The notes under the pieces were generated by a model. The model was not told where the DNA came from, did no database searches, and saw only the letters and a program-made list of their open reading frames with translations. The translations under genes and the position numbers were made by a program. Of a stretch of DNA of 64,000 nucleotides, positions 15,627-15,650 are shown in pieces. Every line of letters begins with the position of its first letter. Position 1 is the first letter of the stretch. The stretch lies in the IMG/VR virus record IMGVR_UViG_2695420521_000002, positions 35,400-99,399 of that record; one strand, given 5' to 3'. Source of the DNA: a virus. Lineage: Duplodnaviria; Heunggongvirae; Uroviricota; Caudoviricetes.

Positions 15627-15650
15627 CAACAAATGACTAGCGGTAGAATC
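15627..15650 (+). promoter_or_regulatory. candidate Lpa-dependent late promoter (conserved box plus -10)
   Basis: CAACAAATGACTAGCGGTAGAATC; 22/24 identical to motif at 49614 and similar to 37305; about 28 nt upstream of start codon. Confidence 0.5.

Follow-up and report, generated by a model that had tools for sequence, protein, structure and literature searches.

Three motifs ahead of structural operons match annotated P1 late promoters

The 24 nucleotides at 15627-15650 raise the question of whether they, along with two similar motifs elsewhere in the window (the whole 64-kb stretch of DNA that we analyzed), are late promoters that depend on the activator Lpa. We find all three motifs on the plus strand, CAACAAATGACTAGCGGTAGAATC at 15627-15650, GAACAAATGACTACTCGTAGAATC at 49614-49637 and CAACAAGTGACTTTCAATAAAAT at 37305-37327, just as the original prediction had quoted them. 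Over 23-24 nt, the sites are 100% identical to LP26, LPsit and LP23, respectively, as annotated in the bacteriophage P1 reference record (AF234172/NC_005856), which has detailed promoter annotation. The finding is therefore already known, in that the three motifs are annotated P1 late promoters. We put the probability that they are the Lpa-dependent late promoters LP26 (15627), LP23 (37305) and LPsit (49614) of a P1-type phage-plasmid at about 0.93.

The window evidently comes from such a phage-plasmid. A 2-kb stretch around the 15627 site shows ~97% identity to P1 and to many P1-like phages, and more than 500 near-identical P1-like records are found among plasmids, along with a few diverged ones. 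Relatives were also seen in Pantoea, Leclercia, Serratia and Klebsiella. The window runs from ~94 kb to ~32 kb in P1 coordinates, with its orientation reversed relative to AF234172. Searching genome contigs for the locus with PmgC returned near-identical relatives only, and megablast with a 76-nt query gave no match. This element can take over the annotation of P1-like phage-plasmids. P1 and the window do not differ in LP26, LPsit and LP23, and the operons downstream are also the same. The sequence upstream of LPsit is different in P1.

Each of the three sites is separated by ~30-50 nt from the first gene of a morphogenetic operon, which bears out the earlier proposal that each one precedes a structural operon. 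LP26 leads into gene 26 (ATG 15679), followed by genes 25-7-24-6-5. LP23 leads into gene 23 (major capsid), 22 (sheath), 21, pmgG and bplB, and LPsit into pmgC (ATG 49668), tub, pmgB, sit, pmgA, bplA and 16. Two hairpins were noted nearby. An intrinsic-terminator-like hairpin at 49558-49575 follows simC and lies just upstream of LPsit, and a large hairpin at 37214-37246, upstream of LP23, corresponds by position to the parS centromere region.

A shared architecture with a box 4 bp from the -10 element

The three sites have a common layout, which consists of YRAC, a 9-bp -22 box of the AAGTGACTT type, exactly 4 bp, and a TAnAAT -10 element. LP26 (15627-15649, plus strand) is made up of CAAC, the box AAATGACTA (15631-15639), the spacer GCGG and the -10 element TAGAAT (15644-15649). 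In LP23 (37305-37327, plus strand), the corresponding parts are CAAC, AAGTGACTT (37309-37317), TCAA and TAAAAT (37322-37327), and in LPsit (49614-49636, plus strand) they are GAAC, AAATGACTA (49618-49626), CTCG and TAGAAT (49631-49636). A box of the AAGTNACTT type, 4 bp ahead of the -10 element, is present at all three. The ACAA(A/G)TGACT box that had been described from the raw sequence, 4-5 bp before the -10 element, is real, but its position differs by 2 nt from that of the 9-bp -22 region in the annotation, which is separated from the -10 element by exactly 4 bp. It begins with two additional bases (AC), and these are conserved in most P1 late promoters.

In AF234172, 11 late promoters are annotated (LPmat, LPpro, LPlyz, LPdar, LPs, LPsit, LP23, LP26, LPpmgL, LPhot and LPpac). 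All 11 align to the same single architecture of YRAC, 9-bp -22 region, spacer and TAnAAT, with a spacer of 4 bp in every case except LPhot, which has 9 bp. This layout agrees with the original prediction's description of P1 late promoters as a -10 element combined with a conserved upstream Lpa element, as does the literature, according to which the Lpa site of the 11 P1 late promoters is a 9-bp inverted repeat (PMC10695390) and Lpa binds DNA sequence-specifically (PMC1891329). In LP26 and LPsit, the box is an imperfect palindrome only. The consensus that we used comes from the GenBank annotation and secondary citations; a literature search with LPsit and other promoter names gave nothing relevant besides the P1 virion proteome paper.

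For scoring, the 11 late promoters annotated in P1 were combined into a PWM that ignores the spacer, and expected counts were taken from first-order Markov simulations. The window contains seven sites of at least 15 bits, compared to 0.36 expected. LP26 scores 23.6 bits, LP23 26.4 and LPsit 22.2, all within the range of the annotated P1 promoters, and every sequence test places the sites in the P1 late-promoter family. The exact motif is also enriched, with four copies of ACAARTGACT on the two strands of the 64 kb compared to 0.23 expected. None of 100 dinucleotide-preserving shuffles reached four copies, so the pattern is real and not due to chance. A looser pattern, AAGTNACTTN6ANNNT with two mismatches, was uninformative (63 matches compared to 62.6 expected).

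The five best PWM sites are LPs, LP23, LP26, LPpac and LPsit, all of them orthologues of annotated late promoters. LPs (Ps; 57874-57896, plus strand) is composed of TGAC, the box AAGTTACTT, the spacer CTCT and the -10 element TACAAT; it scores 26.6 bits and drives the tail-fibre operon R-S-U. LPpac (2596-2618, minus strand) is composed of TGAC, ATGTGACTT, TCGT and TACCCT; it scores 22.3 bits and drives pacA (2560 down to 1367). Both were also recovered when the P1 promoter regions were used as BLAST queries against the window, a search in which LPhot had no match, its region being replaced. Further copies do stand ahead of other late operons, as LPs, LPpac and the candidates ahead of ppfA and upfC described below, contrary to what would have refuted the original prediction. 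Of the five strong matches, the original prediction had picked out three; it missed LPs and LPpac, as well as the divergent LPpmgL annotated on the 15631-15639 box.

LPpmgL (15621-15639, minus strand) is a predicted divergent late promoter that uses the -22 box of LP26 read on the opposite strand. Its -10 element (15621-15626) is ATTATT in the window and AATATT in P1, a single-base difference, and its PWM score is 10.8 bits in P1 and below 9 in the window. The JK004 sequence (see below) has no LPpmgL counterpart. Given its low PWM score and its absence from JK004, LPpmgL seems doubtful as a genuine divergent partner of LP26.

The fourth exact copy of the motif (ACAAGTGACT, at 17334) lies inside gene 7 and has TAACCT at the right distance. 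The full match (17332-17354, plus strand) reads CAAC, AAGTGACTG, GTGA and TAACCT, begins 45 nt past the gene 7 ATG, scores 18.8 bits and is identical in P1. In JK004 and the Salmonella plasmid described below, the score collapses to 6.2 and 5.0 bits, respectively, although TAnnnT persists. We considered this match as an internal promoter and regard it as probably coincidental.

The box and its spacing are kept in diverged relatives

We applied this PWM to two diverged relatives, Cronobacter phage JK004, which has ~75% DNA identity in gene 26 and an Lpa that is 67% identical, and the Salmonella plasmid pCFSAN058588. Strong matches occur just ahead of the homologues of 26, 23, R, pacA, prt and lyz, and weaker ones ahead of pmgC. 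These sites have the same architecture of YRAC, box, 4 bp and -10 element at orthologous positions, but their boxes accept other bases, including C at box position 8 and ACATATGACAA at LPsit. The site orthologous to LP26 is kept in JK004. The LP23 orthologues score 21.5 bits in JK004 and 26.4 in the Salmonella plasmid, and the LPsit orthologues score low, at 12.2 and 12.5 bits. Pairwise alignment shows that divergence has affected the spacer, the flank upstream and most of the leader but has spared the box, its 4-bp distance from the -10 element and the -10 element itself, which is the footprint expected of a functional element.

An alternative is that the three sites are ordinary constitutive or early sigma-70 promoters in which the box is incidental, as a UP-like or extended element, and Lpa has no role. 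Their -10 hexamers do match sigma-70 well, and the P1 annotation places predicted sigma-70 promoters so that they overlap or adjoin several late promoters. However, no -35 element is present at 16-18 bp at LP26, LP23 or LPsit, and a consensus -35/-10 scan calls none of the three, consistent with a class of promoters that use the box instead of a -35 element. In addition, the box is held at a fixed 4-bp distance, is common to all annotated late promoters and, unlike the neighbouring bases, is kept in the diverged relatives. We therefore consider ordinary sigma-70 promoters very unlikely.

The box could also be the operator of another regulator, C1 or a different repressor, instead of an activator site. 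A C1 operator, O26 (Op82; ATTGCACTAATAATTTT), is located at 15590-15606 on the plus strand with the same sequence as in the P1 annotation; it sits 25 bp upstream of LP26 and belongs to the early sigma-70 promoters of pmgL. The box itself is partly palindromic. Against this, the C1 operator sequence (ATTGCTCTAAT...) is unrelated to the box and is annotated separately, and the box is fixed relative to the -10 element and found only ahead of late genes, which makes an operator extremely improbable. That the motifs resemble one another through chance or local duplication, with no function, might be entertained given how short they are and that one exact copy is inside a coding region, but this is effectively refuted by the enrichment of both the exact motif and the PWM sites and by the conservation of their positions in genomes that are ~75% identical.

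Phage D6 (MF356679) provides a further comparison. D6 has a homologous Lpa-like activator with 30.6% identity to P1 Lpa, and the P1 PWM detects essentially no late sites in it, the P1 box being lacking. D6 has a motif of its own, AAAT(C/A)ACA(A/T), with 16 copies compared to 6.2 expected and a spacing to the -10 element that differs from P1. This motif plus a -10 element precedes prt, lydA, R, gene 23, upfC, gene 7 and mat, which are the same late operons as in P1. Thus, the box differs where the activator has diverged.

The activator gene and its C1 control are intact

The late promoter activator gene lpa is present at 2642-3094 on the minus strand. Its product is identical to P1 Lpa at 150 of 150 residues and matches the Pfam family PF25716 (BPP1_LPA, E = 3e-57). 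By the P1 annotation, the C1 operator Olpa (Op94) and the sigma-70 promoter Plpa are at 3140-3181 on the same strand. The region upstream of lpa is 99% identical to P1, with two mismatches in 116 nt, both of which are upstream of the operator. Olpa and Plpa tie late transcription to the loss of C1 repression, and P1 has the same C1 control over a 100% identical activator gene (the Lpa/gp10 regulon). Because lpa is identical and Olpa and Plpa are nearly unchanged, the cascade from C1 through lpa to the late promoters is intact in this element.

Lpa is an activator that binds DNA in a sequence-specific manner and acts together with the host protein SspA, which is associated with RNA polymerase and does not itself bind promoter DNA (PMC1891329). 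SspA is described as the Lpa co-activator elsewhere as well (PMC8201110). A functional analogy is found in Francisella, in which PigR acts with MglA-SspA, so that here too a DNA-bound activator works through an SspA-family protein on RNA polymerase (PMC1891329). However, PigR and its DNA site are unrelated to Lpa and the box, and the system is bacterial and not from a phage.

In the model that we favor, the box, centred near -22 and preceded by YRAC, would stand in for a -35 element. During lysogeny, lpa would be kept silent by the C1 repressor acting at Olpa. Upon induction or infection, Lpa would be made and would bind the -22 box, and Lpa and SspA together would let the sigma-70 holoenzyme start the head, tail, baseplate, tail-fibre and packaging operons. 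Late promoters that have no -35 element are also found in phage T4, although T4 late transcription relies on a sigma factor of the phage (gp55) together with the sliding clamp instead of a DNA-binding activator.

The evidence that we present for Lpa-dependent late promoters consists of the identity to P1, the position ahead of late operons, the absence of a -35 element, the conservation in relatives, and an lpa gene that lies behind a C1-controlled promoter. Lpa binding, the requirement for SspA and late timing at the three sites are taken from the literature. For LP23, which is marked 'predicted' in the P1 record, and for LPsit, which has no experimental cross-reference there, we infer Lpa dependence, in P1 as here. 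With this qualification, the sites are very probably what they had been proposed to be. The result serves mainly as a check on the scan, since a known regulatory motif was correctly recovered from raw sequence alone.

A possible translational gate at LPsit

LPsit overlaps an inverted repeat whose two 11-nt arms, CTCGTAGAATC at 49627-49637 and GATTCTACGAG at 49651-49661 (plus strand), are 100% complementary. The -10 element is contained in the left arm, and the right arm extends into GAGG, the ribosome-binding site of pmgC. RNA reading through LPsit from upstream folds at -21.2 kcal/mol (z = -4.7), and RNA starting downstream of the -10 element is unstructured. When leaders were folded, those of LP23, LPpac, LP26 and LPs did not stand out relative to shuffles, whereas the hairpins at LPsit and at the LPs of JK004 (3736-3775 of the JK004 sequence examined), which is similar, did.

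We hypothesize that the LPsit hairpin may act as a translational gate, such that only transcripts started at the late promoter are efficiently translated and read-through transcripts are disfavoured. The hairpin is kept in JK004 and in two Salmonella plasmids (two Salmonella lineages were compared), with one compensatory change from G-C to A-U; covariation support is thin, as it comes from this single event. Hairpins control translation of T4 gene e and soc, where only transcripts that start inside the hairpin at a late promoter expose the ribosome-binding site. The proposed P1 version would follow the same idea.

Candidate late promoters ahead of the spanin and spike-tip genes

A site at 32168-32190 (plus strand) is a candidate late promoter ahead of ppfA/mlp. 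It reads TAAC, AAAGGACTT, CACA and GATAAT, scores 15.4 bits and falls in the 39-bp gap between upfB and ppfA (ATG 32210). The box carries a G at position 4, which is otherwise invariant. P1 has two changes at this site, confined to the spacer, and the site scores 14.7 bits in JK004 and 17.1 in the Salmonella plasmid, where the spacer, the flanks and the downstream bases vary. PpfA (Rz-like) and Mlp (Rz1-like) match Rz-like spanin families, and newer phage records name ppfA Rz. In P1, the site has no late-promoter annotation and the ppfA/mlp operon has predicted sigma-70 promoters only; the remaining P1 lysis genes have late promoters. The 32168 site is a plausible candidate for a twelfth P1 late promoter.

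A weaker candidate lies ahead of upfC, at 31034-31056 on the plus strand (upfC start 31089). It reads CCAC, AAATAACCT, AAGT and TAAAAT and scores 12.0 bits, a level at which 2.9 chance matches are expected per window. At the same position, P1 scores 9.7 bits and the Salmonella plasmid 13.2. UpfC belongs to the PAAR family and is predicted to be a T4 gp5.4-like spike tip, and it has been listed as a predicted virion protein (PMC9024508).

Taken together, these observations raise the possibility, which we hold tentatively and at somewhat less than even odds, that the P1 late regulon is slightly larger than the 11 annotated promoters, through the ppfA/mlp and upfC sites, and more layered, through the LPsit hairpin. 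If so, the spanin and spike-tip genes, which now have predicted sigma-70 promoters only, would gain Lpa-dependent promoters of their own. The extra promoters and the hairpin would be small additions to a classic system.

Cargo genes in a P1-like element with an intact late regulon

Besides the single-base change in the LPpmgL -10 element, P1 and the window element differ in that the LPhot region is swapped for cargo. The cargo ORF at 5511-9146 (minus strand, 1211 aa), which is absent from P1, encodes an intimin/invasin-like adhesin with an inverse-autotransporter beta domain and Big_1/invasin D3 repeats. LPhot is missing from the window element because this ORF occupies the position of hot-lxr-humD in P1. 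The late regulon of the element is intact, with lpa, the C1 operator that controls it and five strong late promoters all present, which suggests that this P1-like, cargo-bearing plasmid may still be capable of the lytic programme. A second cargo ORF absent from P1, at 20572-21735 (plus strand, 387 aa), belongs to the sulphur-transport family PF04143 and is inserted behind gene 5, in the orientation of the LP26 operon.
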